Shown: positions 1 to 24,535, counted from the first letter of the stretch. The stretch is 64,000 nt of DNA from an uncultured Alphaproteobacteria bacterium (GCA_944392235.1 CALXVZ010000002.1:73288-137287); one strand, 5' to 3'. Notes: a model not told the origin generated them from the sequence alone. Program-made: numbers and translations.

Positions 1-2
1 AA

Positions 3-268
3 TACAATCACAGCTTAAACTGGATTGTATGCCAAAATAACTTATACCCCACAACTAGACTTGAAAGTTATGAAGAATTAAGTAAAAAATCAAAACTATA
101 TGGTTTCAGAACGCCACCACCATTAAATTTTAGATTTGCATATCAAAATATCACATCAGGAATTTCTGCACAAGACAGAACCGAACCCTCATTAGAAAAA
201 ACACTAACATATGAAGACATTTGCGCCAAAAGAGAAATAACAAAACTTGCAGAATTTATTTTTAATTG
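3..268 (+). CDS. 3' end of an upstream gene truncated by the window edge (unknown product)
   Basis: Frame 3 is open from the window start to TGA at 266-268 (88 codons) and has no start codon in the window. No recognisable motif. Confidence 0.3.
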
Positions 269-346
269 ATAAATAACCTTTACAAGAAATACAAATAGCA
301 TTAAGGTGCATTAGAGTTTTTAACATTTAAGCTAAAAGGAAAACAA

Positions 347-1966
347 ATGATAGAAACAGTAACAACCACCCCGTATACCGATCAAAAAATGGGAACAGCT
401 GGACTAAGAAAAAAGACAGCAATCGCAATGCAACCACATTACATTGAAAACTTTTTACAAAGTATATTCAACACCATACCTTCATTGGAAACAAAATCTT
501 TTTTAGTTGGAGGGGACGGACGTTACTTTAATAATATCGCTATACAAAAAATTATCAAAATTGCCGCAGCAAATAAGGTAAAGAAATTATACATTGCTCA
601 AAATGGATTAGTATCAACTCCAGCAGGCTCTTGTATTATATTAAAAAACAAACTAGACGGGGGTTTAATTTTAACAGCCTCTCATAACCCTGGCGGAAAG
701 AACGGAGATTTTGGCTTAAAATACTCCACCTCCACAGGCGGACAATGCCAACCGCATGAAAGCCAAGCAATTTTAGAGCAAACACTAAAAATAACAGAAT
801 ATAAAATATCAAATGCAACCGATTTTGACTTATCTCAAATAGGCATTTTCCACTGTGAAGAAACTGAAATTGAAATTATTGACCCCTACACAGACTACAT
901 CGAGACAATGAGAAACATTTTCGATTTCAATAAACTTCATGCATTATTAACATCAAATTTCAGATTTGTATTTGATGCCATGAATGGTGTAACCGGACCA
1001 TATGGCAAAAAGATTTTTGAAGAAATACTAGGAGCACCTGAAGGAAGTGTCTTAAATGCAACACCTAAAGAAGATTTTGGAGGTTTGCATCCTGATCCTA
1101 ATTTAATTTACGCAAAAAGCCTTGTTGACTTAATGTATTCGGATAATGCTCCTGATTTCGCAGCCGCCAATGATGGTGATGGCGATAGAAACATGATATT
1201 AGGTTCACATTTTTTTGTTTCACCCAGTGATAGTTTTGCCATTTTAACAGATAATTACAAAATCATCCCTGCATATAAAGATGGAATTTATGGAGTAGCA
1301 AAATCCGCTGCAACATCTATGGCAGTAAAAAGAGTTGCAGACAAGCTGAAAATTGGTTTTTATGAAGTTCCGACCGGATGGAAATACTTCATAAATTTAA
1401 TGGATTCTAAAAGAATTACATTTTGCGGAGAAGAAAGTTTTGGAACAGGAGCCACACACATACGAGAAAAAGATGGAATTTGGGCTATTCTATTCTGGTT
1501 AAGCATCATAGCCACTACCAACAAGAGCGTAAAACAAATAGCTCTTGATCATTGGCAAAAATACGGAAGAAGTTACTATCTAAGAAATGACTATGAAGGC
1601 ATAGCACAAGAAATTGCCGATAAATTAATGTCTGACCTAGAAAACAGATTACCGGAATTAACAAACAAACGATTTGGTAATTTCACCGTTTCGTCAGCTC
1701 ACCCATTCATCTACAACGATCCCGTTGATAACAGTTCAACAAAAAATGGCTTAATTGTCCACTTCACAGATGGATCAAGAATTGTCTATAGATTATCTGG
1801 CACAGGAACAAATGGAGCAACATTAAGAGTTTATATAGAAAGATACGTTACAGACAAGCTATTAGAAGAATCAAATGAAATCTTACAAGAATTAAGTAAA
1901 GTATCACAAGAAATTTCCCATGTTTGCACACTAACAGGTAAACAACAACCTGATATCATCACATAA
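347..1966 (+). CDS. pgm: phosphoglucomutase (alpha-D-phosphohexomutase family)
   Basis: 539 aa. Active-site serine loop TASHNPGGKNGDFG and metal-binding DGDGDR motif. Length matches Pgm. Confidence 0.9.
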   Translation: MIETVTTTPYTDQKMGTAGLRKKTAIAMQPHYIENFLQSIFNTIPSLETKSFLVGGDGRYFNNIAIQKIIKIAAANKVKKLYIAQNGLVSTPAGSCIILKNKLDGGLILTASHNPGGKNGDFGLKYSTSTGGQCQPHESQAILEQTLKITEYKISNATDFDLSQIGIFHCEETEIEIIDPYTDYIETMRNIFDFNKLHALLTSNFRFVFDAMNGVTGPYGKKIFEEILGAPEGSVLNATPKEDFGGLHPDPNLIYAKSLVDLMYSDNAPDFAAANDGDGDRNMILGSHFFVSPSDSFAILTDNYKIIPAYKDGIYGVAKSAATSMAVKRVADKLKIGFYEVPTGWKYFINLMDSKRITFCGEESFGTGATHIREKDGIWAILFWLSIIATTNKSVKQIALDHWQKYGRSYYLRNDYEGIAQEIADKLMSDLENRLPELTNKRFGNFTVSSAHPFIYNDPVDNSSTKNGLIVHFTDGSRIVYRLSGTGTNGATLRVYIERYVTDKLLEESNEILQELSKVSQEISHVCTLTGKQQPDIIT

Positions 1967-1991
1967 AAATTCCTGTCACAACTAGGAGCCA

Positions 1992-4646
1992 TTGATGTTC
2001 AGAAATAAAGATATACGACCGGATAAAATTTTAGAAGAGCGTCTCTTACTACTTGTATTTATGCTAACAGCCACAATAGTAAGTATAGGTTTTCTATTTG
2101 CTTATCCGGCATATCTTCGCCCAGTAATTTTACTAGTATTTTTATTTATTATCCTAAGCATATATATAACCATAACAATACTCCAATCTGGAGAAAGTGC
2201 CATTTTATATGGAGGATTAGCAAATGAGATATTAAAAAATCGCAAAACATGCTACATCATACTAAATTCAGAAGGTAAAACAATTCTGCAAAACCAAATT
2301 GCAAAAGATTTTTTAAAAGAAACCCCTATACTAAAATTTTTAGAAGATAATCTAGTTAAAACAGAAACAAACCAACAAAAACTAAAACAAATTCAATTAT
2401 CAGCAACACATTTTAAAGAAGACACAGTAGAGATTGCCCTAAAATTTAACAACACAGCCATATTTTCCGGAGAAGAATGGTATAGAATAACTCTTCGTCC
2501 AATCAGTTTAAATCAAAAAGACATAAGCGAAATAGATAATTCAAGCAAATTCAATATTAAATACAACACATATCTACTATGGAGTTTAGAAAATATCACT
2601 TCTGAAAAAACAATAAACACCATTTTCCAAGAAGAGAGAAGATCTTTTTACAACTTCCTCAATTTTATGCCAATAGGTTTATATATCTTAAACAATAAAG
2701 GAAAAATTGAATACATAAACAAAACGCTAAGCTTAATTTTAAATACCCCGAAAGAAAACATTTTAGGTAAAGACATCACAGATTTTTTACCTATTACCTC
2801 CGAAAGTATTGAAAAAATAAACAACACCAGCACACAATACATAACCTATATAAAAAATGCGAATAAAGCTCCGCAAGAATATTTAGTAAAAGTCGACCAA
2901 TTTAAACAAGGCAATGAAGTCCAAACAAGAGGAGCCATTATAGGCAATATTCCTACAGATTCGAAACTAAAAATAGCCTATGATGAAGCAATTTCTGAAG
3001 CAAATAGCATATTCAACTTATCACCATTTGGTATGTTGCTCTTAGATACAGAACTTGTAATTAAAAGAGTCAATCAAAAATTTACAGAAATCTTAGGTAT
3101 CCCTTCTTCCTCTCAATTATTAGACAACTATCTAGCCAATTATTTAGATGAGGATAGTATAGGCAAAATTAGAAAACAATTAAATGTCTTTACATCAGAA
3201 ACAGACAAACTCCAGCCGGCCTATTTTGATTTAAATTTAAGAGATAGAAAGAAGAATAAAATACTACGTATATATATCTGCCCTCTATTTAATTCTCCTT
3301 TACAAACAAAAGAGAATATCAAAGGAATTGTTCTGTTTTGTTTAGATACAACTGAACAAAAAAATCTAGAAACCCAATTTGCACAAGCCCAAAAGATGCA
3401 AGCGATGGGACAACTAGCCGGAGGAATAGCTCACGATTTTAATAACTTGCTTACTGCGATGATTGGTTTTTGCGATTTATTATTACAAAAGCACAAAATC
3501 GGAGATTCATCATTTGCCGATATAATTCAAATAAAACAAAATGCAAATTGTGCCGCTGAATTAGTAAAACAACTATTGCAATTTTCAAGAAAACAACCCT
3601 TACAACCAGAACTAAGTGATATAACAGATATATTAACAAACTACACACCTTTATTGAAAAGAACCGTCGGAGAACAAGTTGACTTACACTTTAAGCACGG
3701 TGAAAATTTAGATTATATAAAAGTAGATAAAGTCCAATTTTTGCAAGTTGTATTAAATCTATGCGTAAATGCAAAAGACGCAATGAACAAAAAGGGAGCG
3801 CTGACAATCTCTACGCAAAAAGAAACATTACTTGAGCCATATCACTTTGGAGCTGAAACAATCGAAAGTGGAAGCTTTATCAGAATGGATGTAACAGATA
3901 CAGGATGTGGTATTCCACTAGAAAATCTATCCAGAATATTTGAGCCATTTTTCTCAACTAAACAAAATGTTGTCGGTTCAGGGACTGGATTAGGTTTAGC
4001 TACTGTATACGGAATTGTACGCCAAATGGAAGGCTTTATAAAAGTAAAGAGTACCATAAATGTCGGCACAACTTTTTCAATATATTTACCAGCCTACCCA
4101 ATAGAAACATCTGCCAAAAAAGCAGAAGAAACATCCATGCGTAAGATATTAAATGACAAGAGAGGCAGAGCAATTTTAACACCAGCAGAAGTGCAAACAA
4201 CTAATAAAGACAAAGAAAAAATTATTTTAGGACTAAACTTATCTGCAATTGAAGACCCAGAACAAAAACCCGAAGAGATAGAAAATACAAGAATACTCTT
4301 TGTCGATGATGAGAATTCTGTTCGCACATTTGCCCTACGAGCTCTTCGTAAAAAAGGATATGATGTTATAGGATGCAATTCTGCAGAAAACGCCTTAGAA
4401 ACACTAGAGAATGATAAAAACTTCCAATTGATGATTACAGATATGGTAATGCCTGGACAAAATGGAATTGAACTATCCAAACAAGTTTTAGAAATTTTAC
4501 CGGATATAAAAATCATATTAGCATCAGGATACTCTGAAGACATTTTAAAAGGTGAATTTAATGATATAGATAATTTATCATTTATACCTAAGCCATTCAG
4601 TTTAAGTGATTTAACGCAAAAAGTTTATGAGGTTATGAAGTCATAA
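1992..4646 (+). CDS. cckA: hybrid sensor histidine kinase/response regulator, CckA-like
   Basis: 884 aa. N-terminal TM helices, PAS-like regions, H-box GGIAHDFNNLLTAMIGF, HATPase G-box GTGLGLATVYGIVRQ and a C-terminal receiver (VDDE...ITDMVMPGQNG). The H-box matches alphaproteobacterial CckA; the symbol is tentative. Confidence 0.7.
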   Translation: MMFRNKDIRPDKILEERLLLLVFMLTATIVSIGFLFAYPAYLRPVILLVFLFIILSIYITITILQSGESAILYGGLANEILKNRKTCYIILNSEGKTILQNQIAKDFLKETPILKFLEDNLVKTETNQQKLKQIQLSATHFKEDTVEIALKFNNTAIFSGEEWYRITLRPISLNQKDISEIDNSSKFNIKYNTYLLWSLENITSEKTINTIFQEERRSFYNFLNFMPIGLYILNNKGKIEYINKTLSLILNTPKENILGKDITDFLPITSESIEKINNTSTQYITYIKNANKAPQEYLVKVDQFKQGNEVQTRGAIIGNIPTDSKLKIAYDEAISEANSIFNLSPFGMLLLDTELVIKRVNQKFTEILGIPSSSQLLDNYLANYLDEDSIGKIRKQLNVFTSETDKLQPAYFDLNLRDRKKNKILRIYICPLFNSPLQTKENIKGIVLFCLDTTEQKNLETQFAQAQKMQAMGQLAGGIAHDFNNLLTAMIGFCDLLLQKHKIGDSSFADIIQIKQNANCAAELVKQLLQFSRKQPLQPELSDITDILTNYTPLLKRTVGEQVDLHFKHGENLDYIKVDKVQFLQVVLNLCVNAKDAMNKKGALTISTQKETLLEPYHFGAETIESGSFIRMDVTDTGCGIPLENLSRIFEPFFSTKQNVVGSGTGLGLATVYGIVRQMEGFIKVKSTINVGTTFSIYLPAYPIETSAKKAEETSMRKILNDKRGRAILTPAEVQTTNKDKEKIILGLNLSAIEDPEQKPEEIENTRILFVDDENSVRTFALRALRKKGYDVIGCNSAENALETLENDKNFQLMITDMVMPGQNGIELSKQVLEILPDIKIILASGYSEDILKGEFNDIDNLSFIPKPFSLSDLTQKVYEVMKS

Positions 4647-10953: not shown

Positions 10954-11523
10954 ATGAAAAGAAAATTGTCAAAAATATACACATATTGTCTGAGTATTGC
11001 GCTAGTAAATTCAATATACACAGCGATTCCTAACGTATACGCTAAAGATGAAGCCTCTACAAATCTTTCTCAAGACACATGGATAACATCTTCAAGCAAA
11101 ACAACCATTAAAGTTATAGATGGAGACAGTTTGGAAATAGGAAAGAGACGAATACGCCTGATGGGAATAGACGCTCCAGAATACAATCAAACGTGTAAAA
11201 ATGCTAAACAAGAAATATATGCATGCGGAAAGCGTTCGATGGAATATTTAGAAGAATTACTCACGAAGAACAATTTAAGATGCAAAGTCCACAAGCAAGA
11301 CAAATACAAAAGGGATTTATGCACCTGCTACACAGACAACAAGGACATAAACGCTCAAATGATAAAGAGTGGCAATGCTATAGTTTATCTAGAAAGCGCC
11401 TACCACAAAGAGCAAGATTACGCCAAAGAGCACCGACAAGGAATATGGTCAGGAAGTTTTATTCACCCACGTTTATTTAGACTTTTAGAAGAAAAAGCAA
11501 AGAAAAAAAATCAAATTATTTAA
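10954..11523 (+). CDS. secreted thermonuclease (SNase-like)
   Basis: N-terminal signal peptide. Staphylococcal nuclease motifs IDGDSLEIG...RIRLMGIDAPE. Confidence 0.75.
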   Translation: MKRKLSKIYTYCLSIALVNSIYTAIPNVYAKDEASTNLSQDTWITSSSKTTIKVIDGDSLEIGKRRIRLMGIDAPEYNQTCKNAKQEIYACGKRSMEYLEELLTKNNLRCKVHKQDKYKRDLCTCYTDNKDINAQMIKSGNAIVYLESAYHKEQDYAKEHRQGIWSGSFIHPRLFRLLEEKAKKKNQII

Positions 11524-12284: not shown

Positions 12285-13358
<1,074 letters not shown>

Positions 13359-13377
13359 TTAATAAAAGGAAAGATAA

Positions 13378-13722
13378 ATGACGAAAACTGATAAAAGTTT
13401 ACTTGAATTAGTTCAAAAAGTTTTAGATGACAATAAAGCAGAAGATATCGTAACAATAGATTTAAAAGGCAAGACATCTATTGCAAATTACATGGTTATC
13501 GCTAGTGGAACATCAAATCGTCATGTAGCATCTTTAGCAGACAAATTAAAATATGAATTAAAGCAAAATGGCTTTTCTTGTTCATCTGAAGGAGAAGAAA
13601 AAGCAAACTGGGTTCTCATCGATGCATTTGACGTCATCGTTCACATATTCTGCCCAGAAGTAAGAGATTTCTACAATTTGGAAAAAATGTGGGGATCAAT
13701 TGCAGAAATGCGAAAAGCATAA
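13378..13722 (+). CDS. rsfS: ribosomal silencing factor RsfS (Iojap)
   Basis: 114 aa with DIVTIDLKGKTSIANYMVIASGTSNRHVASLADKL. Conserved position after obg. Confidence 0.85.
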   Translation: MTKTDKSLLELVQKVLDDNKAEDIVTIDLKGKTSIANYMVIASGTSNRHVASLADKLKYELKQNGFSCSSEGEEKANWVLIDAFDVIVHIFCPEVRDFYNLEKMWGSIAEMRKA

Positions 13723-13816
13723 GCTTCGATATAAATTTATCGACAAGATCAAAAAAGCACTTGATTTATTATTTCGAAGCGTGTAATTAGGGTGAAGAAA
13801 TAATAAAAAAAGAGAT

Positions 13817-13892
13817 AGGGGTATAGCTCAGTTGGTAGAGCACCGGTCTCCAAAACCGGGTGTCGTGAGTTCGAATCTTACTGCCCCTGCCA
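13817..13892 (+). tRNA. tRNA-Trp (anticodon CCA)
   Basis: Hand-folded cloverleaf: acceptor AGGGGTA/TGCCCCT, D-arm GCTCAGTTGGTAGAGC, anticodon loop CTCCAAA, T-arm GTGAG-TTCGAAT-CTTAC, discriminator G, encoded CCA. Canonical position upstream of secE-nusG. Confidence 0.9.
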
Positions 13893-13926
13893 CTTAAGAT
13901 GAAGACGCTGAAAAGCGTCTTTTTTC
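13884..13926. repeat. direct repeat copy 0 (tRNA-Trp 3' end CCCCTGCCA + CTTAAGATGAAGACGCTGAAAAGCGTCTTTTTT), att-core-like
   Basis: The same ~43 bp recurs at 15081-15122 (identical) and 16031-16072 (3 mismatches). Confidence 0.85.
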
Positions 13927-13930
13927 TTTT
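13901..13930 (+). terminator. rho-independent terminator downstream of tRNA-Trp (part of repeat copy 0)
   Basis: GAAGACGCtgaaaaGCGTCTTTtttcttt: 8-bp stem plus T-run. Confidence 0.6.
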
Positions 13931-13950
13931 TAAATCAATGCGTTATTCAA

Positions 13951-14000
13951 GTCCGTGTAGCGTGTATCAGTTGAGGTTGTCTCCCGCTTTTTACACGGAC
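13951..14000. repeat. cassette-leader inverted repeat GTCCGTGTAG...CTACACGGAC (copy 1)
   Basis: Perfect 9-10 bp arms with a ~32 nt loop. Homologous hairpins lie at the same relative position in cassettes 2 and 3. Confidence 0.7.
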
Positions 14001-14173
14001 TACACAAAATAAAATTCTTTGATTTACAAGAGGTTAATCCAGTATGAATCTGATTTTGTTTTGGGATTTTTGTTCTTTGAATAATAAATTTGCAAAAGAA
14101 AAATAATTGCGATAGACTTCGAAAAATAAGTAATTTAATCTTACAAAAGAGCAGTTCGATTGGGAATTTTGGC

Positions 14174-14641
14174 ATGATATATTTGGTTTATCCTGGATTA
14201 GGAAAAACTTTTTTAGCTAAAAAAGATGTTGGATTTTGTGATATTAATGTTCGCAAATTCAAGGATGCTGACTTTGATAATTATACTTCAAGTTATCGGG
14301 GAACTAAAATTAAAAATATAAATCCAGATTTTCCAAACAATTTACAAAGCTACCTATTGGATAAAATCAAGTTAAACATAATTATTTTAATGGCCTTTAA
14401 GAAAGCAACAATACAGCTCCTTGAGAATATGAAGCTTGATTATGAAATTGTTTTACCCGATGAATCAAAACTTGAAGAATTAAAAGACATCTATAAACAG
14501 CGTGGTGATAGTGATAAGTATATTGAGCAAAATACAACCCATAGGTATAAGGAAACTTTATTTTTAGCCAGACAATCAGGAAAAGTCATTAGGTTTGTTG
14601 CAAAAGGTTTGTGGTTAGAAGATGTTATTATGGAAAAATAG
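14174..14641 (+). CDS. cassette 1 cargo: small P-loop (PGxGKT) kinase-like protein, unknown function
   Basis: YPGLGKTFLAKKD P-loop-like motif near the N-terminus. ~155 aa if ATG 14174 is used (the track alternative is 14090). No further recognisable family. Confidence 0.4.
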   Translation: MIYLVYPGLGKTFLAKKDVGFCDINVRKFKDADFDNYTSSYRGTKIKNINPDFPNNLQSYLLDKIKLNIIILMAFKKATIQLLENMKLDYEIVLPDESKLEELKDIYKQRGDSDKYIEQNTTHRYKETLFLARQSGKVIRFVAKGLWLEDVIMEK

Positions 14642-14756
14642 TTGAGATGAGTTTTACAACCATATTTAATGAAGAAATTGATGTGCTTTGTACTGATTGT
14701 ATGGTCATGGATAATAAAAAGTTTATGGCTTAATTGATTAAAAGGAAAAACAAATA

Positions 14757-15053
14757 ATGAAGGTCATTACAATTTGCGGTTCTTTGAAATTTGAGAAAGA
14801 TATTAAATATTGGGCGGAAAAATTGACCTTAGAGGGAAATTGTGTCTTATCAATTATCTATCCTATCAGTACAGATTTAGGTGTTTATACTTCTGAACAA
14901 CGAAGTTTTTTTGCCGAAGCTCATTACAAAAGAATAGATTTATCTGATGCCCTTTTTGTTGTTAATAAAAATGGATACATCGGCGATAGTACTCAAAAAG
15001 AGATTGAATATGCAAAGGCTCGCGGAAAGGAAGTTATCTTCTTGGAAAATTGA
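14757..15053 (+). CDS. cassette 2 cargo: nucleoside 2-deoxyribosyltransferase-like (Rossmann/SLOG-type) small protein
   Basis: 98 aa. N-terminal MKVITICGSL and C-terminal DALFVVNKNGYIGDSTQKEIEYAKARGKEVIFLE match the D...G..G.T..E..YA...GK.V signature of Nuc_deoxyrib_tr-like proteins. Confidence 0.55.
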   Translation: MKVITICGSLKFEKDIKYWAEKLTLEGNCVLSIIYPISTDLGVYTSEQRSFFAEAHYKRIDLSDALFVVNKNGYIGDSTQKEIEYAKARGKEVIFLEN

Positions 15054-15060
15054 AGAAATA

Positions 15061-15122
15061 GTCCGTATATTGTCCTATATCCCCTGCCACTTAAGATGAA
15101 GACGCTGAAAAGCGTCTTTTTT
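15061..15122. repeat. direct repeat copy 1 (cassette right end TAGTCCGTATATTGTCCTATAT + tRNA-3'-end/terminator core)
   Basis: 15081-15122 is identical to 13884-13925. The preceding 20 bp is shared with copy 2. Confidence 0.85.
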
Positions 15123-15145
15123 ATTATAAATCACAAGTCAGTTTA

Positions 15146-15195
15146 GTCCATGTAAGATATGTTTAATGAAGCCAATTCCCGCTTGTTACACGGAC
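15146..15195. repeat. cassette-leader inverted repeat GTCCATGTAA...TTACACGGAC (copy 2)
   Basis: Arms differ from copy 1 at 2 positions. Same position relative to the core repeat. Confidence 0.65.
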
Positions 15196-15329
15196 TTTCA
15201 TTTCTAAGTTTTTTTATTTTATAAGTGCTTAGCTAAGTGGGAATCCTATTAGGTTTCGGGATATTTTTGTTTTACAATAAAGGATTTTTCATTTACAATA
15301 TATCCTAGTTGAAAAAGGGGAGTTTTAGG

Positions 15330-16001
15330 ATGTCAATCTCAATAGAAGATGCAGAAAATATGGTTGATAATGTAAGGAAAAGGTGGATTGCACTTGGGCG
15401 TAAACCAGAGACCTTATATATGTATGACAATCATATAAAAGGTGCGGCAGTTGTTGCAAAAACAATAGCTACGCATTTGGAAAGCATAAATCCAGAACAA
15501 GCCTATGTTTGCGCTTTTTTACATGATATTGCAAAAATTGATGAATCTCCAGAATCTATGCTTGGGCGCTTTCATGGGATATTAGGATATGAAATGTTAA
15601 AAGATAAAGATTCCGCTGTTGCACGTGCGTGTTTATTACATGAAATTCCTTTAAATAGAATTACAAAATATACAGAAGCAAAATTTTTAGGTAATACAAA
15701 AGATTTTGATTTTGTCGTTGATTTTATCTCCAACACATCTTTAACTGATGAAGATATGCTTATCCAACTTTCAGATAGCATGGCTAATAAATCAAGTATT
15801 GTAACATTGGAACAGCGGCAGGAAGAATATGAGGCAAGATTTAATAAAAAGTTGCCTCCTGAATTTACTGAACCATATTTAGAAATAAAAGCATATTTTG
15901 ATAAAAAATTAGGTTTTAATTTGTATGAGCTGTTTCCAAGCCTTAATCAAAATTCTAGAAATACATATAAAATAGTCACAGAAAATATTAGGTATCGGTA
16001 A
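15330..16001 (+). CDS. cassette 3 cargo: HD-domain phosphohydrolase
   Basis: H...AFLHDIAK HD motif. RBS AAAGGGGA 8 nt upstream of ATG 15330 (the track start is 15309). Confidence 0.6.
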   Translation: MSISIEDAENMVDNVRKRWIALGRKPETLYMYDNHIKGAAVVAKTIATHLESINPEQAYVCAFLHDIAKIDESPESMLGRFHGILGYEMLKDKDSAVARACLLHEIPLNRITKYTEAKFLGNTKDFDFVVDFISNTSLTDEDMLIQLSDSMANKSSIVTLEQRQEEYEARFNKKLPPEFTEPYLEIKAYFDKKLGFNLYELFPSLNQNSRNTYKIVTENIRYR

Positions 16002-16009
16002 ATGAGGTA

Positions 16010-16078
16010 GTCCGTATATTATCCTATAAGCCCTGCCATTCAAGATGAAGACGCTGAAAAGCATCTTTTTTTCTTTTT
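16010..16078. repeat. direct repeat copy 2 (GTCCGTATATTATCCTATAAG + CCCTGCCATTCAAGATGAAGACGCTGAAAAGCATCTTTTTTT), slightly degenerate
   Basis: 3 substitutions relative to copies 0/1; the terminator stem carries one mismatch. Confidence 0.8.
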
Positions 16079-16097
16079 AAATCAATGCGTTATTCAA

Positions 16098-16147
16098 GTC
16101 CATATAGCGTGTATCCATTGAGATTGTTTTTCTCTTGATACACGGAC
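16098..16147. repeat. cassette-leader inverted repeat GTCCATATAG...TACACGGAC (copy 3)
   Basis: The ~95 bp after the repeat (16078-16170) is ~85% identical to 13930-14020. Confidence 0.65.
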
Positions 16148-16315
16148 CGCTCAAAATAAAATTTGTTGTTTTTTAAATAGTTAGCATGGTGAAACCTGAT
16201 TTTGTGGAGTTTATGCTCTAATTTTTTGATAGACTGACAGTCATTATTTATTGACACGATTATTCTTTTGTGCTATATACAATAATGAAGTTTATTCTAT
16301 ATGAGGAGAAATAAA

Positions 16316-16756
16316 ATGACTGAATATATTAAGTATTCAAATGATGAGGAACATGCTAATTTGTTTCTAAAAGTTGAGGATGATAAAGTTGTTGATTCTG
16401 TGAGAGATAAAGTTTATGCCGATAGGTATGGCCATAGTATTACCAGAAATTTGATTGGTATGAATATGGCTGATGTTGAGGAAATAATGAATTATGATGA
16501 TAAAATGTCTGCTCCTCAAAAGATTAGTGTTAAAGAGTTTTTAGAAGCAAAATCTAACTTTTTGAAAATTCAAAAAAAGGAGCATCAAATTGATGTTGCA
16601 AGAGCTAATACAACAAGAATACAAGATACAGGTACAGATAAATTGGCAGAAAAAGAACGAAAATTAAAGCGCAAATTAAATCCTGACCGTTATGAAAGTG
16701 AAGAAGCTATGGTTGACCAAAGAGTAAAAATTGCAAAAAAATATATGACTCGATAG
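16316..16756 (+). CDS. cassette cargo: hypothetical lysine-rich protein, unknown function
   Basis: RBS AGGAG 7 nt upstream of ATG 16316. No recognisable domain. Confidence 0.4.
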   Translation: MTEYIKYSNDEEHANLFLKVEDDKVVDSVRDKVYADRYGHSITRNLIGMNMADVEEIMNYDDKMSAPQKISVKEFLEAKSNFLKIQKKEHQIDVARANTTRIQDTGTDKLAEKERKLKRKLNPDRYESEEAMVDQRVKIAKKYMTR

Positions 16757-16789
16757 ATTTTTGAGCTAATTGTCGTAATTGGTTATTGA

Positions 16790-16878
16790 GCAAAAGGTGA
16801 AGGTTCGAAACCGGCAAGAGAGTTCGATGCTGAGGCTCACGAAAAACACGAAAAAGAAGTTATCTTTTGGGAAAATTA
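16790..16878 (+). pseudogene. decayed 3' fragment of a second deoxyribosyltransferase-like cassette gene
   Basis: Reads AKGEGSKPAREFDAEAHEKHEKEVIFWEN* against the intact GDSTQKEIEYAKARGKEVIFLEN* of the 14757..15053 protein. Preceded by an in-frame stop at 16787. Confidence 0.5.
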
Positions 16879-16894
16879 AAAGTATATGCAGATG

Positions 16895-16930
16895 AAAAAA
16901 CCCGTAGAACAATAGTATCCACGGGTTTTT
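16895..16930. terminator. weak bidirectional hairpin terminator candidate
   Basis: aaaaaaCCCGTagaacaatagtatccACGGGttttt: 5-bp stem, long loop, flanking A/T runs. Confidence 0.3.
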
Positions 16931-17285
16931 GTTAAGTTAATAATTCCAGTTAATTAACACATACAGTCTTTAGGACAAAAAACTCCAAGGATTTGACTGT
17001 ATTCCTAAACTCTTGTTGGTGAACGGATCTTTACATCGAGGAAAATCCATCTAATGCCACTTAGAACTACAATTACTTTCCTCTTTAAGTAATTTAGCAC
17101 TAGAAAGAGTAAATATTGGGGTTCACCATAATCCTGAATTATTTTTAACTGGGATATTACATAAATAGTAAGAGCCAATAAACAAAGCAGGATTAGTATT
17201 CCACAGTAATTCATAAATTATAAGATTTATCGTCACTAAGCTATAAAAATTAAAAATAAAAGTCAATGTTTTATTATTGATAAAA

Positions 17286-17350
17286 GTCCCTGGATTATCC
17301 TATATTCCCTACCAATAAAAAAGGAAGTCTTAAAAGAGACTTCCTTTTTT
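17286..17350. repeat. degenerate 4th copy of the cassette-end/tRNA-core repeat followed by a perfect terminator hairpin
   Basis: GTCCCTGGATTATCCTATATTCCCTACCA versus GTCCGTATATTGTCCTATATCCCCTGCCA, then GGAAGTCTtaaaagAGACTTCCtttttt. Same core+terminator architecture as copies 0-2. Confidence 0.6.
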
Positions 17351-17351
17351 A

Positions 17352-18161
17352 TTATAAAATATCTGTCATCATATTATCCTTTGAAGATTTCAAATTCATC
17401 TCGCTAAAACGTATGACAGATAGTTCTTGCTTAGAGCTTATTTTAAAGGCAATGACTGGATAGATTGTTTTTCCAATTAAATGCCCTACTAAAAAATCTT
17501 CGTTTTCTTGCGGATTTTTCAGCTCACCAGGAAAAAGATGTGTAACATTTAATTCATCATAAAAACGATGCAATGCACATGGATAAATAATATATTTTTT
17601 TCCTGTCTTTTGTGTTAAAAGCCAGATAGGTTCATCATAACTCGTTATTTTTAATTCTATGTTTTTTACTCCTTTAATAACTTCTTTAAAAGGAAAGTTA
17701 TTCAATATATCAGTCGGAGTCAAAAACAAGAGAGGACAATCAGTTCGATGCTCGTAATAACAACTCATCCCTAAAAACTGAGGAAGATAAATTTGTTCTC
17801 TTTTTTCAGAGATTGCAAACTTAGTTACAACGCTTTTACCTTTGATTTGCCACTGACGAAAAACGGAAGTCCACGCATTGGAATTATTTTTTTCTATAAA
17901 ATCATCAATATCAAATCCATTTCCTACATTGACGCTCTCGAGCGAGCAGAATTCATGATTAAATATCAAGTATTTAATATATTCTTTACCTAATATTGTC
18001 ATAGGGATAATCCATTGAGGTGTAACATCTGGAGAAGATGCTCTCAATATAATATCCTGCTCTCTGCATAATTTATATTCCAGTCCCTTTGCTTGAGAGC
18101 AAAGATAACCAACCAACGCTAAAATATCTTTAGCTTCGGTAATAAGTTCTATTGTCTTCAT
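17352..18161 (-). CDS. hypothetical protein (269 aa), island cargo
   Basis: No recognisable motif. Lies immediately downstream of the macro-domain gene on the same strand. Confidence 0.4.
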   Translation of the reverse strand: MKTIELITEAKDILALVGYLCSQAKGLEYKLCREQDIILRASSPDVTPQWIIPMTILGKEYIKYLIFNHEFCSLESVNVGNGFDIDDFIEKNNSNAWTSVFRQWQIKGKSVVTKFAISEKREQIYLPQFLGMSCYYEHRTDCPLLFLTPTDILNNFPFKEVIKGVKNIELKITSYDEPIWLLTQKTGKKYIIYPCALHRFYDELNVTHLFPGELKNPQENEDFLVGHLIGKTIYPVIAFKISSKQELSVIRFSEMNLKSSKDNMMTDIL

Positions 18162-18294
18162 AATATAATATTTTAATAGTTTAACATCATAATTTTATTT
18201 TACCTAAGTATATGGCTTCAAGGTAAAATGTAAAGAATTTATAATAAAAAAGGCTTTCCCTCCAAAGAGAAAGCCTTTCTTCATGTAGATAACA

Positions 18295-18903
18295 CTATTC
18301 AGGCAAGAGTCCCATTCCAATAAGCCATTCAGCTAAATTGATTTTCTTTTCGCCAGTTTCAATTTTAAAATCAAAAGATTGACTAGCTAAAACAGTTTCT
18401 GCCGGAACAGTTGAATTCCGAAAAATAACCAATCTGACCTCTTTCACGCAAGAATCAGGATAACGAGTACTAAACTGATCAATCGCAGAAAAAATCACCC
18501 GAGCAGATTGGTCCTGAGTTAAACGTCCTATAATGCCTGTTCCAAGTTCAGGAATAGCTATTCTACTAAACTTACGTTTATCAGCTTCTTGCAGAACACG
18601 CAAGATAGCCTCAAACACCACTCTGAACTGTTCAGACTTTCCAGCCCCTGCCGTCGCAACATGAGCCAACTGAATATTATTTTTTCCAGAATCTGTAATC
18701 ATAATCTCGCCATATTTTAACGGCTTTTTCTGCACAGCAAATTCGTAACGATCCAATCCTGAACACATTCCGTTTGCTGCTATTGCACCACCAACTCCGC
18801 CATAAGAAGCACCGTTTGTAAACTCCGGAACAACAATACAATCGACATTTTCCATAGCTATGTTACCATTTTTTACGATAACATCAACATTTCTAATCTT
18901 CAT
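18295..18903 (-). CDS. macro-domain (ADP-ribose binding/hydrolase) protein
   Basis: NVDCIVVPEFTNGASYGGVGGAIAANG matches the macro-domain N..A.....GGGV.GAI signature. Start preferred at MKIRNV (18903); the track start is 18978. Confidence 0.55.
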   Translation of the reverse strand: MKIRNVDVIVKNGNIAMENVDCIVVPEFTNGASYGGVGGAIAANGMCSGLDRYEFAVQKKPLKYGEIMITDSGKNNIQLAHVATAGAGKSEQFRVVFEAILRVLQEADKRKFSRIAIPELGTGIIGRLTQDQSARVIFSAIDQFSTRYPDSCVKEVRLVIFRNSTVPAETVLASQSFDFKIETGEKKINLAEWLIGMGLLPE

Positions 18904-19097
18904 AATCTGTAATCTTTTAGTTAGACATAATGATAATTGAACAAAAAGGAGTTTAACACAAAGAATCATCCTTTTCAAGAACTAAAGTAGCATAAATATC
19001 TCTTCGATAAAAATATTGACATTCGTTACTCTAACTATAAGATAAAATTCGATAAATTATAATTTATATATCATTTAACACCTAAAAATATAAGTTT

Positions 19098-19607
19098 ATG
19101 GAAAATTACGTATTATTACATGGCAACCATTACTATAAATGGTGGCATTTTTTTCTAAGAGATTCAGAGAAATATTTCCCCTATCCTATCGTTTACGAAG
19201 ATGGTTTGATAAGCAATTTAAAATCAGACAAAGAAAACAGAAAAGTCTGGGGCTTCATTTACAAGAAGCACATTATTTCTATTTACGCAGAGAAGATGTC
19301 CCCTAAAGAAGCCAGAGAATTCTGTAAGAAAAACATTTTCGCAGGAAAAAACTACTGTATAGTTCCGATAGCGATAATGAAAAAGATCCTACAAAACACT
19401 TCTCTTATCAACTCATTAATTAAGGAGTTAGGAGGAACTCTCATCGAATCTCAATGGTATATGGCTGCAAATGACCGCTGGCTGGATAAAGATTTTATAT
19501 TAGATAAAAAAATGTGCGGAGTTCATCCTCAAATCAAACCAGTAAGAAATTGCTGCTTCATTGATGAAGAAACAAACGCATATTTTTATCCGGCAATTGT
19601 GTTATAA
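19098..19607 (+). CDS. hypothetical protein (169 aa), island cargo
   Basis: No recognisable motif. Confidence 0.4.
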   Translation: MENYVLLHGNHYYKWWHFFLRDSEKYFPYPIVYEDGLISNLKSDKENRKVWGFIYKKHIISIYAEKMSPKEAREFCKKNIFAGKNYCIVPIAIMKKILQNTSLINSLIKELGGTLIESQWYMAANDRWLDKDFILDKKMCGVHPQIKPVRNCCFIDEETNAYFYPAIVL

Positions 19608-19865: not shown

Positions 19866-20057
19866 ATGGGAAACACAAGTCCGATACAATTTTTTAGACA
19901 AGTTAAACAAGAAGTAAAAAAGGTTACATGGCCATCTAAAAAAGAAGTAACACGAGCAACAATTATGGTAATGATAATCGTTGCAATTGCTTCTGCATTT
20001 TTCTTCTGTGTAGATATGATATTTGCCGCCATAGTTCGTGCAATATTTGAATATTAG
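19866..20057 (+). CDS. secE: preprotein translocase subunit SecE
   Basis: 63 aa with a single C-terminal TM helix (KKVTWPSKKEV...). Immediately upstream of nusG. Confidence 0.85.
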   Translation: MGNTSPIQFFRQVKQEVKKVTWPSKKEVTRATIMVMIIVAIASAFFFCVDMIFAAIVRAIFEY

Positions 20058-20067
20058 GAGATGCCAC

Positions 20068-20601
20068 ATGACAGCACGTTGGTACGTTGTTAACGTATAT
20101 TCTGGATCTGAGAAAAAAGTTGCCGAATCTATCAGAGAGCAAGCCGTCTTAAAGAAGATGGATGATAAGATTTTGGAAGTATTAGTTCCAACCGAACAAG
20201 TAGTAGAAGTTCGTAAAGGAACAAAAGTAAACGCAGAACACAAATTCTTCCCAGGATATATTCTAGTAAAGATGGAAATGAGTGATGATGCATGGCATAT
20301 CGTAAAAGATACACCTCGTGTTAGTGGTTTCTTAGGAAGTCACAACAAGCCACAAGCAATTAGTGATGCTGAAGTAAAAAGAATCATGACACAAATTGAA
20401 GAAGGTGTTGAACGTCCATCTACTGAAATTTACTTTGAAGTTGGCGAACAGATAAAAGTAACAGATGGTCCATTTGCATCATTTGTTGGAGTAGTTGAAG
20501 AAGTTGACAATGAAAAGTCACGTGTAAAAGTTTCTGTATCAATCTTCGGACGTTATACTCCAGTAGAATTAGAGTTCAGTCAAGTAGAAAAAATTGCTTA
20601 A
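20068..20601 (+). CDS. nusG: transcription termination/antitermination factor NusG
   Basis: NGN domain WYVVNVYSGSEKKV plus a C-terminal KOW domain. RBS AGGAG 7 nt upstream of ATG 20068. Confidence 0.9.
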   Translation: MTARWYVVNVYSGSEKKVAESIREQAVLKKMDDKILEVLVPTEQVVEVRKGTKVNAEHKFFPGYILVKMEMSDDAWHIVKDTPRVSGFLGSHNKPQAISDAEVKRIMTQIEEGVERPSTEIYFEVGEQIKVTDGPFASFVGVVEEVDNEKSRVKVSVSIFGRYTPVELEFSQVEKIA

Positions 20602-20625
20602 CAGACTGAATAAGACAATAAAAAA

Positions 20626-20654
20626 GCCTCCTTTGGAAAGGAGGTTTTTTTTAT
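20626..20654. terminator. bidirectional rho-independent terminator
   Basis: aaaaaaGCCTCCTTTggaAAGGAGGTtttttttt. Confidence 0.65.
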
Positions 20655-21539: not shown

Positions 21540-22346
21540 ATGATTTTCGAAAATGCAAAAACTCTTTTAAAAAGAGAATATGAAAAATATTACAATATAT
21601 CCTCAGCACACGCCCAAAAAGTTATGAATGAAAAAACACGCCATTCATACCAAGTACTAGGAGTAGGAAATTACCTATTAAAGCACGAAGCTTGCTTTAA
21701 TACGGCATCACCTGAAGAAGTAACACGTTTAAAAGCAACCGTTCTTTTACATGATATTGGCCGTTTCTATGAAGTTTATAGAGAAGGTTTTGATGAAAAA
21801 GTAGACCATGGAGAATATGGTGCACAATTATTAGAAACCATCCCTCTTTACAAAGATATAAGAATAACTCTACCTATAAAGCACCATGGTCATCTAATCA
21901 AAAATCTATACAAAGATGAGACATACATCGACTTAGATGCAACGAAAAAAAAAGAAATAGAAAAAATAATTTATTTAGTAAGAGATTCAGATAAAATCGC
22001 CAACTTTTACTTACTTTCAAGAGAATTCCCAGACATGGAAGAGCTTTTTTTCTTTGCTCAACGCATGGATATAGGAAGCCAAGAAATATCTCAAGAAGTA
22101 TGGCATGATTTTTTAAATCACACAGAAGTTAATATAAACAATGTCCACACAGCAGCAGAAAACGCTTTAATGATACTAGCCTGTGCTTTTGATATAAGAT
22201 ATATCTCCTCATATCAACTGTTACAAAAAACACAAATGCTAACAAAACTATATAACTATATGAAAAAATTTTGGACAGAGAAAGATGCTGAAATTTGTTG
22301 GACTGAAATAAATCATCACATAAAAAAGAAATTAAGCAATTTATAA
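21540..22346 (+). CDS. HD-domain phosphohydrolase (unknown substrate)
   Basis: H...LLHDIGRF HD motif. Confidence 0.55.
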   Translation: MIFENAKTLLKREYEKYYNISSAHAQKVMNEKTRHSYQVLGVGNYLLKHEACFNTASPEEVTRLKATVLLHDIGRFYEVYREGFDEKVDHGEYGAQLLETIPLYKDIRITLPIKHHGHLIKNLYKDETYIDLDATKKKEIEKIIYLVRDSDKIANFYLLSREFPDMEELFFFAQRMDIGSQEISQEVWHDFLNHTEVNINNVHTAAENALMILACAFDIRYISSYQLLQKTQMLTKLYNYMKKFWTEKDAEICWTEINHHIKKKLSNL

Positions 22347-23875: not shown

Positions 23876-24535
23876 ATGAAAAAGATTGATAAAATCATCA
23901 ATTTTATGCGAGCATTAGAAGAAGTTTGTATCGTAAAAAGAGACTTACTCTTATACGAAGGCTCCCCGGAAAATGATGCCATGCATATTTTCAAACTCTC
24001 CTTTTTAGTTATGCTTATAGCACCTTATCTCAAATCTCCTATAGATTATACAAAGATGTTAGAAATGGCATTAGTCCACGATATAGCAGAAGGAAAGGTT
24101 GGAGATTACACTGCAGCAAATCAAATAGCAAATCCATCCATTAGAGAAGAAAAAAAGTATAAAGAAGCACAAGCCATCAAAGAATTAAAAAAGCTTCTTC
24201 CAGCTCCCTTAAATAAAAAAATCTATGATTTATATGAAGAATACGAAGAAAAGCAGACCATTGAAGCAAAAATAGTCTCTGCACTAGACAAATTAGAAGC
24301 AAATCTGCAGGCAAATCAATATAAAGATGGCGATGTTCGCTATTGGGGATTATGTGAAAATGGTGGAGAATATTATAAAATGGCACTAAAGAAAAAGCCA
24401 CTCATAGCCGAATTAAATGAACCAATAATAAAAGAATTAGAAAAAGCCATTATAGCCTTATCTCGTGAAAACATGCAAAAATGTGCATTACATCCTGTAA
24501 ATAAGAAGAGGACAGATGCTACTATATGTAAATAA
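23876..24535 (+). CDS. HD-domain 5'-deoxynucleotidase, YfbR-like
   Basis: H..LVHDIAEGKVGDY motif of the HD_3/YfbR family. Confidence 0.55.
   Translation: MKKIDKIINFMRALEEVCIVKRDLLLYEGSPENDAMHIFKLSFLVMLIAPYLKSPIDYTKMLEMALVHDIAEGKVGDYTAANQIANPSIREEKKYKEAQAIKELKKLLPAPLNKKIYDLYEEYEEKQTIEAKIVSALDKLEANLQANQYKDGDVRYWGLCENGGEYYKMALKKKPLIAELNEPIIKELEKAIIALSRENMQKCALHPVNKKRTDATICK

Follow-up and report, generated by a model that had tools for sequence, protein, structure and literature searches.

What kind of locus places a short row of small genes between tRNA-Trp and secE in an uncultured gut alphaproteobacterium, and do these genes serve in defence against phages? The window, i.e., the whole stretch of 64,000 nucleotides (nt) analysed here (GCA_944392235.1 CALXVZ010000002.1:73288-137287), carries four such genes, which a sequence-only reading had described as the cargo of small mobile cassettes and as a possible swappable toolbox for defence or nucleotide modification. 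The explanation towards which we lean is an array of three mobile cassettes at the 3' end of tRNA-Trp, which have no recombinase of their own, are served by a serine recombinase supplied in trans, and carry accessory nucleotide-enzyme cargo. No paper describing this array was found in a literature search.

The window has a GC content of about 33%, with the array at 14-17 kb at 29-32% versus 35-40% in the flanks. The gene order is rplU-rpmA-obg-rsfS, tRNA-Trp (13817-13892), approximately 6 kb, and secE-nusG. The final 8 nt of tRNA-Trp, CCCTGCCA (13885-13892), are identical to the repeated core of the array, whose parts are the following.

13817-13892, plus strand: tRNA-Trp (CCA), the anchor of the array, called by ARAGORN; Rfam tRNA, 68 bits.
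13875-13900, no strand: quasi-palindrome with half-sites ATCTTA-N7 and N7-TAAGAT, centre at C13887/T13888 within the core; a proposed crossover region, as read from the sequence.
13893-14173, plus strand: junction 1 leader (P' arm), with terminator hairpin 13901-13922 and inverted arms 13950-13959 and 13992-14001; nhmmer E 4.6e-54.
14174-14641, plus strand: cassette 1, gene 1, 155-amino-acid (aa) P-loop protein of nucleoside monophosphate (NMP) kinase fold, motif YPGLGKT.
14757-15053, plus strand: cassette 1, gene 2, 98-aa minimal protein of nucleoside deoxyribosyltransferase (NDT)/DNPH1 fold, with D64 and E82 at the catalytic Asp/Glu positions.
15059-15329, plus strand: junction 2, a full site, with P arm 15059-15081, core 15082-15089, terminator 15098-15119, inverted arms 15145-15154 and 15187-15196, then leader; nhmmer E 1.9e-49.
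15330-16001, plus strand: cassette 2, predicted 223-aa HD-domain phosphohydrolase, Pfam HD E 3e-9, ligand pattern H..HD..H..H..D.
16008-16300, plus strand: junction 3, a full site, with P arm 16008-16030, core 16031-16038, inverted arms 16097-16106 and 16140-16147, then leader; nhmmer E 1.8e-53.
16301-16756, plus strand: cassette 3, open reading frame (ORF) of 151 aa, probable start at 16316 (146 aa).
16757-17284, no strand: decayed tail of cassette 3, with a 9-codon remnant, a hairpin at 16892-16930 and a 69-aa minus-strand ORF; repeat D6/D9.
17285-17353, plus strand: distal array end (attR-like), with P arm and degenerate core CCCTACCA at 17307-17314, which fits the core pattern with 1 mismatch.
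19866-20601, plus strand: secE-nusG, the conserved right flank, from the Pfam tables of the identical locus L001.

All four ORFs named by the sequence-only reading are present and are real conserved genes. They fill three cassettes and not four, since the kinase-like and 98-aa genes always travel together (9 loci). The units are thus the kinase-like gene with the 98-aa gene, the HD gene, and the 151/146-aa gene with the decayed tail. A direct repeat of 64 nt occurs at 13862, 15059, and 16008, the first copy starting within the tRNA, and a shorter match at 17285 is a fourth, partial junction. Each cassette is bounded by a junction module of approximately 230-260 nt, which includes a copy of the tRNA 3' end. 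In the alignment the module reads as an arm of ~22 nt, the core CCCTGCCA, a terminator hairpin, a 10-bp inverted repeat and a conserved leader. The arm, AGTCCGTATATTrTCCTATA, resembles the tRNA T-arm with a 3-nt gap, and the inverted repeat is formed by AGTCCrTrTA ... TACACGGAC. Counted from the terminator, the leader region is ~200-230 nt long and holds the inverted repeat with its variable centre followed by ~85 nt of conserved sequence. A cassette opens with this leader region, continues with its cargo and closes with the arm and the core. The core pattern was found 4 times in the 64 kb against 0.13 expected, the arm motif AGTCCRTRTA 7 times against 0.27 expected, with 7/7 inside junctions, and the junction nhmmer model gave 4 copies in the window, all on the plus strand.

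Two features of the modules bear directly on how the array was built. Firstly, in every comparison cassette-specific sequence has its left boundary at CCCTGCCA, and the tRNA half-site ATCTTACTGCC mirrors the leader start GGCAnTyAAGAT about CT 13887-13888, inside the 8-nt core. Mirror-image half-sites around these two bases would plausibly make up a serine-recombinase core. The second feature is the order of the junction types: the first consists of tRNA and leader, the two internal ones of arm, core and leader, and the last of arm, degenerate core and another terminator, which is the pattern expected from serial insertion at the tRNA 3' end. The distal end gave a partial nhmmer match (model positions 4-76), and its differing terminator (inverted repeat arms 17314-17330 and 17337-17353) was taken as native; an ending of the form CCA-AAAAAAGG-hairpin likewise closes the arrays in the related loci L003 and L014. 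The ~85 nt 3' of the inverted repeat are conserved in all cassette types, with cargo on either strand, so the module is attachment or regulatory sequence and not simply a promoter. A promoter scan performed no better than on shuffled sequence. A riboswitch or small-RNA leader at the junctions was considered and dropped when no Rfam family matched, and junction DNA had no match in isolated phage or plasmid collections.

A second type of sequence was observed 3' of the core at L003 8305-8640, L003 14075-14400, and L014 5234-5357, with a different terminator and a GC-rich stretch GAGAACTCACGAGGAAGTGAGTTTGAC ... GGCGGCCGAAAGGCCG. As it closes arrays, it is probably the native downstream flank of tRNA-Trp. 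The same type also stands mid-array in L003, just 5' of a PDC-S26 gene, and it has no Rfam family match.

The genome collection was scanned for junctions with a loose pattern of 16 specified bases and true matches were recovered by nhmmer; the species count obtained is a lower bound. The same module was found bounding 2-10 cassettes at the tRNA-Trp site in dozens of gut Alphaproteobacteria assemblies, with differing cassette order. Among the matches listed, true junctions occurred only in metagenome-assembled genomes (MAGs) of gut "uncultured Alphaproteobacteria" from human, mouse and ruminant and in human-gut contigs. A tighter metagenome scan added 34 arrays, mostly from human gut, and look-ups of the exact proteins placed cassette genes 5' of secE-nusG in many gut metagenome contigs, with varying upstream flanks and neighbours. 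Every related locus had 2-10 copies of the junction model in one orientation, the first on tRNA-Trp as in the window, and an array ending before secE; secE-nusG was also seen downstream of the arrays in L003, L004, L011, and L012. The 41 junction-to-junction intervals had a median of 953 nt, the shortest being 180-190 nt.

Comparison of individual loci showed that the units change places and genomes. In L003 the HD unit comes before the kinase/98-aa unit, whereas in the window and in L014 it comes after. The window and L014 share a two-cassette block of 2.16 kb at 93.6% identity, to which L014 adds one more cassette towards the tRNA. Although their NusG is identical, L012 and L093 differ in the order and alleles of their cassettes. 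Compared with L003, the window has a kinase-like protein 96.7% and an HD protein 98.7% identical versus 73.3% for NusG, and dS is 0.05-0.08 in the cassette genes with NusG saturated. Cassette proteins 96-99% identical between genomes whose NusG is 70-83% identical indicate horizontal transfer, and the changes of order together with the contrasts in identity and dS show that cassettes cross species boundaries within the clade. The description of the four genes as cargo of small mobile cassettes therefore holds, given the repeated modules, the differing order and the horizontal spread. It is highly improbable that they are instead plain salvage genes of the chromosome, in an intergenic region that happens to vary without the participation of a mobile element. 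Homologues of the 98-aa protein do occur in housekeeping contexts in other Alphaproteobacteria, and the window encodes further HD proteins close by, but salvage genes of this sort would not be expected to have each unit bounded by repeated tRNA 3' fragments, a variable order of units, the gap in identity to NusG just described, and low GC.

A recombinase linked to the attachment module was found in sister loci. L269 has an element of 12.5 kb, flanked by tRNA plus leader at one end and by a full junction at the opposite end. Its genes include one for a large serine recombinase, split by a frameshift (Resolvase 1.6e-18, Recombinase 1.6e-8, Zn_ribbon_recom 4.5e-5), and others for a Rep protein, a Fic protein and further cargo. 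An intact copy of 530 aa, 95% identical, stands in L100 5' of two cassettes without recombinase, and resembles TP901-1 integrase and phage serine integrases. C-terminal remnants of the recombinase were found inside the arrays of L011, L247, L263, and L249. A tyrosine integrase with arm-type sites was demoted to a minor possibility once the serine recombinase had been found in elements with the same ends.

Several observations were made around these larger elements. Within the phage collection the recombinase was most similar to proteins of MT837677.1 (6.4 kb) and MT836653.1 (9.3 kb), at 32-33% identity and >90% coverage; these two contigs from human faeces are short, unannotated and labelled "Bacteriophage sp.", and may be small integrative elements or satellites. 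The cargo 3' of the recombinase differs, being a 715-aa protein in L100 (3911-6058, minus strand) and a 485-aa SEC-C-motif protein in L269 (oriented 12536-13993). The SEC-C assignment was scanned on a 538-aa homologue in L258, and either protein could be element-specific cargo or an accessory recombination factor. Viral scans for the DUF5906 helicase and the MT-A70 methylase of the large elements gave nothing, and the viral scan for the tRNA-Trp sequence returned unrelated phage tRNA arrays only. The prophage at L139 was rejected as the mobiliser of the cassettes, as it duplicates ~47-50 nt of the tRNA from the anticodon stem to CCA, a different crossover class. Its end (IMGVR_UViG_3300045988_182299, 1-3012) carries a lysozyme, a lipoprotein (spanin-like by sequence reading) and a secreted 182-aa protein. 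Inserted into tRNA-Trp directly 5' of an array and with its own duplication class, L139 indicates that a second, different integration system uses tRNA-Trp.

Signatures of nucleotide chemistry had been proposed for three of the four cargo genes, and folds and Pfam matches agree (NMP kinase, NDT/DNPH1, HD). The 155-aa protein had no Pfam or NCBIfam match and belongs to no curated kinase family; among PHROGs it matched phrog_4182 (E 1e-10), and a full HMMER scan gave 83 representative clusters. The family shares the motifs fPGxGKT, NPxFPxNY, and RGN, with G10, K11, N56, R110 and the GxGKT stretch invariant, and some members match AAA_18, AAA_17, and AAA_33 weakly. A sequence search of solved structures gave nothing useful for this protein. 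Its AF2 model (pLDDT 93) had Fap7/AK6, guanylate kinase and adenylate kinase as top Foldseek matches (E ~5e-4, TM ~0.5), and from the motifs and the structural matches of this confident model we assign it to the P-loop proteins of NMP-kinase fold. It shares the fold and Walker A with AK6/Fap7, Gmk and Adk, and differs from them in its ~15% identity to the structural matches, in having no Pfam family of its own, and in its own motifs NPxFPxNY and RGN. The gene has dN/dS of 0.17-0.24.

The 98-aa protein falls below the gathering threshold of Pfam Nuc_deoxyrib_tr (PF05014; E 3.9e-4, 21 bits versus 28.8), and one close homologue has a precomputed PF05014 match. The family is large and tightly conserved, with >350 clusters, invariant C7, E21, N28, C29, H56, N70, G73, Y74, G76, and E82, and D64 conserved in >90%. 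No useful sequence match was found among PDB structures. The top 27 Foldseek matches of the AF2 model (pLDDT 89) were NDT, DNPH1 and the CMP N-glycosidase BcmB, with TM 0.65-0.79. Judging from motif position, D64 and E82 would be the catalytic residues, lying in the motifs "SDA..VV" and "G.ST..E.EYA" as in the PF05014 superfamily (DNPH1/Rcl, NDTs, BcmB/MilB). The N-terminal CGS is shared with DNPH1 in a weak alignment; an hhalign comparison of the 98-aa profile against a DNPH1 sequence entered by hand aligned the CGS motif alone, was not significant and was set aside. In contrast to its superfamily, the protein has 98 aa versus 120-160, no N-terminal Tyr and no C-terminal segment, and scores below the Pfam threshold. 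Its gene has dN/dS of 0.14-0.17. Homologues at 63-70% identity are stand-alone genes in fixed housekeeping contexts of other Alphaproteobacteria, e.g., RNase HII-98aa-PGK with an overlapping start. In 78 viral contigs the family stands among NrdD, NrdG, ThyA (thymidylate synthase), dUTPase, UDG, canonical NDT and xanthine/uracil permease. A Tmk-like kinase lies directly 5' of the 98-aa family gene in 6/78 viral contigs, so that a small kinase beside the 98-aa protein recurs, but from another kinase family.

The 223-aa protein of cassette 2 scored 37.6 bits with Pfam HD (PF01966; cut-off 22) and 27.0 bits with NCBIfam HDIG (cut-off 27.6). H35, H65, D66, H82, H104, and D149 are invariant in the alignment of its family, which comprises 30 clusters, all from Alphaproteobacteria MAGs; a 62%-identical copy in L157 also stands 3' of a junction, and dN/dS is 0.14. 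By profile, the nearest solved relative was the YqeK Ap4A hydrolase 8jja, a full-length but weak match (E 0.014). Like the symmetrical YqeK Ap4A hydrolases it has a single HD domain of ~200 aa with the H..HD..H..H..D pattern; unlike them it belongs to a family confined to Alphaproteobacteria MAGs and has no nadD neighbour.

For the ORF of cassette 3 the start at 16316 is the more likely, since GAGGAG precedes that ATG and gene callers use it. The 151/146-aa protein had no match in Pfam, PHROGs, NCBIfam, PADLOC or PDB. In the tail, the remnant at 16851-16880 (EKEVIFWEN*) corresponds to the 3' end of a second gene of the 98-aa family, of which tblastn found no longer remnant. With this remnant inside, cassette 3 is composite, a product of fusion or decay.

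Taken as a mechanism, the account would run as follows. A putative large serine recombinase supplied in trans would insert and excise the elements by crossover within CCCTGCCA, and further reshuffling of the cassettes probably comes from recombination between their long conserved leaders. Our best guess for the cargo pair is that one protein phosphorylates a (deoxy)nucleoside or nucleotide and the other cleaves or exchanges the base, while the HD unit may supply a YqeK-like hydrolase acting on a nucleotide phosphoester or polyphosphate. A number of points weigh against this explanation. No recombinase was found in the 64-kb window, the part of the source genome that was searched, or beside most arrays, and neither circular cassettes nor empty-site pairs were seen. 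Large serine integrases of the canonical type act solely on attP x attB. In the array the internal junctions are of attP type, with a hybrid site next to the tRNA, so that insertion in series would call for either unusual site tolerance or another route; the stack could grow through site tolerance like that of Ccr or through RecA recombination within leaders. The centre of the inverted repeat (~20-30 nt, e.g., 13960-13991, 15155-15186, and 16107-16139) is hypervariable and shows no linkage to the cassette on either side, an observation that one crossover point does not account for. Similar centres recur within one array (junctions 1 and 3 of the window, four junctions in L003), and such unlinked centres, alike within an array, suggest gene conversion. 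On the side of the cargo, the kinase-like protein matches PDB folds only at TM ~0.5 and the substrates are guesses, the 98-aa protein does not have the N-terminal Tyr of NDT/DNPH1, and the kinase/98-aa pairing was not seen outside this clade, apart from the Tmk-like kinase of another family in the 6 viral contigs.

Much of this evidence can also be read as the debris of successive full elements, each with its own recombinase, the shared cassettes being spread by transfer of array segments and RecA recombination between the ~200-nt leaders. The recombinase remnants inside arrays, the visible decay of cassette 3 in the window and the intervals as short as 180-190 nt would fit such a history, as would the mosaic junction centres, which agree with recombination within leaders, and the movement of the kinase/98-aa and HD units as one 2.16-kb block (93.6%) between the window and L014. 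However, individual cassettes recur between neighbours that differ on both sides, and every cassette keeps a complete module of arm, core and leader, which decay alone would not preserve. We hold debris to be possible, if on the unlikely side, and retain cassettes moved in trans as the preferred explanation.

Small units with imperfect palindromes also recall integrons. The array shares with integrons, sedentary chromosomal integrons and clusters of attC sites lacking integrases (CALINs) the small, mostly one-gene cassettes, many with unknown or secreted cargo proteins, the imperfect inverted repeats with a variable centre, and a recombinase outside the cassette. In spite of this, it can hardly be a chromosomal integron or CALIN whose attC cassettes were moved by an IntI tyrosine recombinase. 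According to the Pfam tables there is no intI, attI, Phage_integrase or tyrosine recombinase in the window or beside any array, and the recombinase associated with the module is of serine type. The arms AGTCCGTGT/ACACGGACT are not R/L boxes (RYYYAAC/GTTRRRY); attC boxes were absent by motif, with no dedicated attC model run, the conserved arms being AGTCCGTGTrAG and TTACACGGACy. Unlike an attC cassette with its consensus, each unit carries a tRNA 3' fragment as core and its own terminator, and cargo lies on both strands.

The closest known system was the composite islands of the staphylococcal cassette chromosome (SCC), in which tandem elements stand at the 3' end of rlmH with up to 8 copies of the integration site and with pseudo-SCC elements lacking ccr (PMC3900703; 10.1101/336396). 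Common to both are a large serine recombinase, a conserved housekeeping gene that receives the insertions at its 3' end and remains intact, repeated integration-site copies bounding tandem elements, elements without recombinase beside those that have one, and accessory cargo that is exchanged. Indeed, we found the recombinase within site-bounded elements (in L269 and L100, not in the window) and tandem elements without it at the 3' end of a conserved gene. The differences are the target (tRNA-Trp, not rlmH/orfX), the hosts (gut Alphaproteobacteria), the size of the units (~1 kb with 1-2 genes versus 5-60 kb) and of the repeated site (a module of ~230-260 nt versus a 15-bp integration site sequence), and a single putative recombinase gene versus the usual ccrAB pair. 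Tycheposons and tRNA islands of Prochlorococcus resemble the array in tRNA insertion, successive insertions split by partial tRNA copies, remnants, cargo modules and, in some, large serine recombinases; they bring their own integrase and, as a rule, a replication module of several kb (10.1101/2020.12.28.424599). Partial tRNA copies do separate the elements here. Unlike tycheposons, most units have neither integrase nor replication module (recombinase and Rep were found only in the rare long elements L269 and L100) and all share one long attachment module. The platform is best described as SCC-like and tycheposon-like in parts, and integron-like in behaviour.

The question of defence was approached through the four proteins and through the cargo of sister arrays. 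A search of the four proteins against PADLOC-DB 2.0, one of the checks proposed by the sequence-only reading, gave no match to any model: the HD protein reached just Cas3-HD at E 0.0035-0.05, and the kinase-like, 98-aa and 151/146-aa proteins had nothing. An ordinary housekeeping placement in conserved chromosomal context, named by that reading as a result that would speak against its proposal, was found in part, namely for the 98-aa protein (fixed contexts at 63-70% identity). The pool of array cargo is mixed, with no nucleotide theme overall, and comprises small membrane or secreted proteins, GNAT, an S41 peptidase, an ABM monooxygenase, a GH108 lysozyme, an L,D-transpeptidase-like protein and many unknowns. 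Candidate defence genes are among it: L248 has a complete HEC-01A/B pair in one cassette (3e-137, 2e-55), PDC-S26 occurs in L003 (1e-109) and, by clustering with the L003 copy, in L268, a UvrD helicase similar to GajB/RTasHel in L274 and an OLD/GajA-like ATPase in L247, and SoFic lies within the recombinase element. With these genes in sister arrays, the site is a hot spot for accessory genes that includes candidate defence genes. The toolbox is therefore swappable as proposed, but "defence or nucleotide modification" is too narrow for the array and unproven for the four genes.

The kinase-like, 98-aa and HD proteins are under purifying selection, with dN/dS of 0.14-0.24 overall. Most likely the cargo of the window consists of phage-type nucleotide-pool enzymes outside any recognised defence system; that it serves in defence is conceivable but unsupported. 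In its strong form, held by the sequence-only reading, the kinase/98-aa pair, and perhaps the HD protein, would be undescribed anti-phage or counter-defence systems that deplete, destroy or alter nucleotides. The candidate defence genes of the sister arrays speak for it, as do the strict co-inheritance and horizontal spread of the pair, the cleavage of nucleotide glycosidic bonds by DNPH1/NDT-type folds, and phrog_4182 and the 78 viral loci, which place both families in phage-host biology. The absence of a PADLOC match for all four proteins speaks against it. So do the stand-alone occurrence of the 98-aa family in housekeeping contexts, the place of its phage members beside ordinary nucleotide-synthesis genes, the absence of a sensor or regulator from the cassette, and the fact that most cassette cargo is unrelated to defence. 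On these grounds we consider the strong form doubtful. A more far-reaching synthesis, which is likewise unlikely to hold as a whole, would see an integron-like platform for gene capture, in which a trans-acting serine recombinase stacks ~1-kb cassettes, each insertion regenerates the target from the tRNA half-site and the mirror half-site of the leader, and the kinase and DNPH1-like pair form an undescribed two-gene anti-phage module directed at nucleotides.

The four genes have moved from a guess at the level of motifs to structural assignments, and the 98-aa DNPH1/NDT-like family proved widespread in phages and bacteria, with a chemistry that can now be tested. The more interesting result is the platform, a stack of mini-cassettes anchored on a tRNA and linked to a serine recombinase. 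If the mechanism holds, it would represent a second, independently evolved route to integron-like stacks of tiny swappable genes, using a serine recombinase and a tRNA-derived site in abundant uncultured bacteria of the human and animal gut. In that case the locus would also be a defined site at which to search for new accessory and anti-phage genes of these hosts, and its recombinase/att pair, compact and unusual in its site behaviour, might be of use to genome engineers.

Three further genes of the window occupy the interval from the last junction to secE (17352-19607). The first, on the minus strand, encodes a protein of 269 aa that belongs to no known family and is also found 3' of array junctions in L108. 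The second, also on the minus strand, encodes a Macro-domain protein (Pfam 6e-8, NCBIfam ADP-ribose-binding 1e-12, PADLOC DarG only 0.011), and the third a 169-aa protein of no family. As they have no flanking junction repeats, these genes may be older or differently acquired content of the island. On the opposite side of tRNA-Trp from the array, directly 5' of it, L004 (866-2753) carries a helix-turn-helix regulator and a 482-aa SEFIR/TIR_2 protein. The remaining observations in the window lie outside the array in regions of chromosomal appearance (20550-20651, 21540-22346, 23876-24535, and 10954-11523). They are a sub-threshold Rfam match to BTnc231 just past nusG (39 bits versus 80), two more HD-domain proteins, one of them YfbR-like, and a gene for a secreted SNase-type nuclease.

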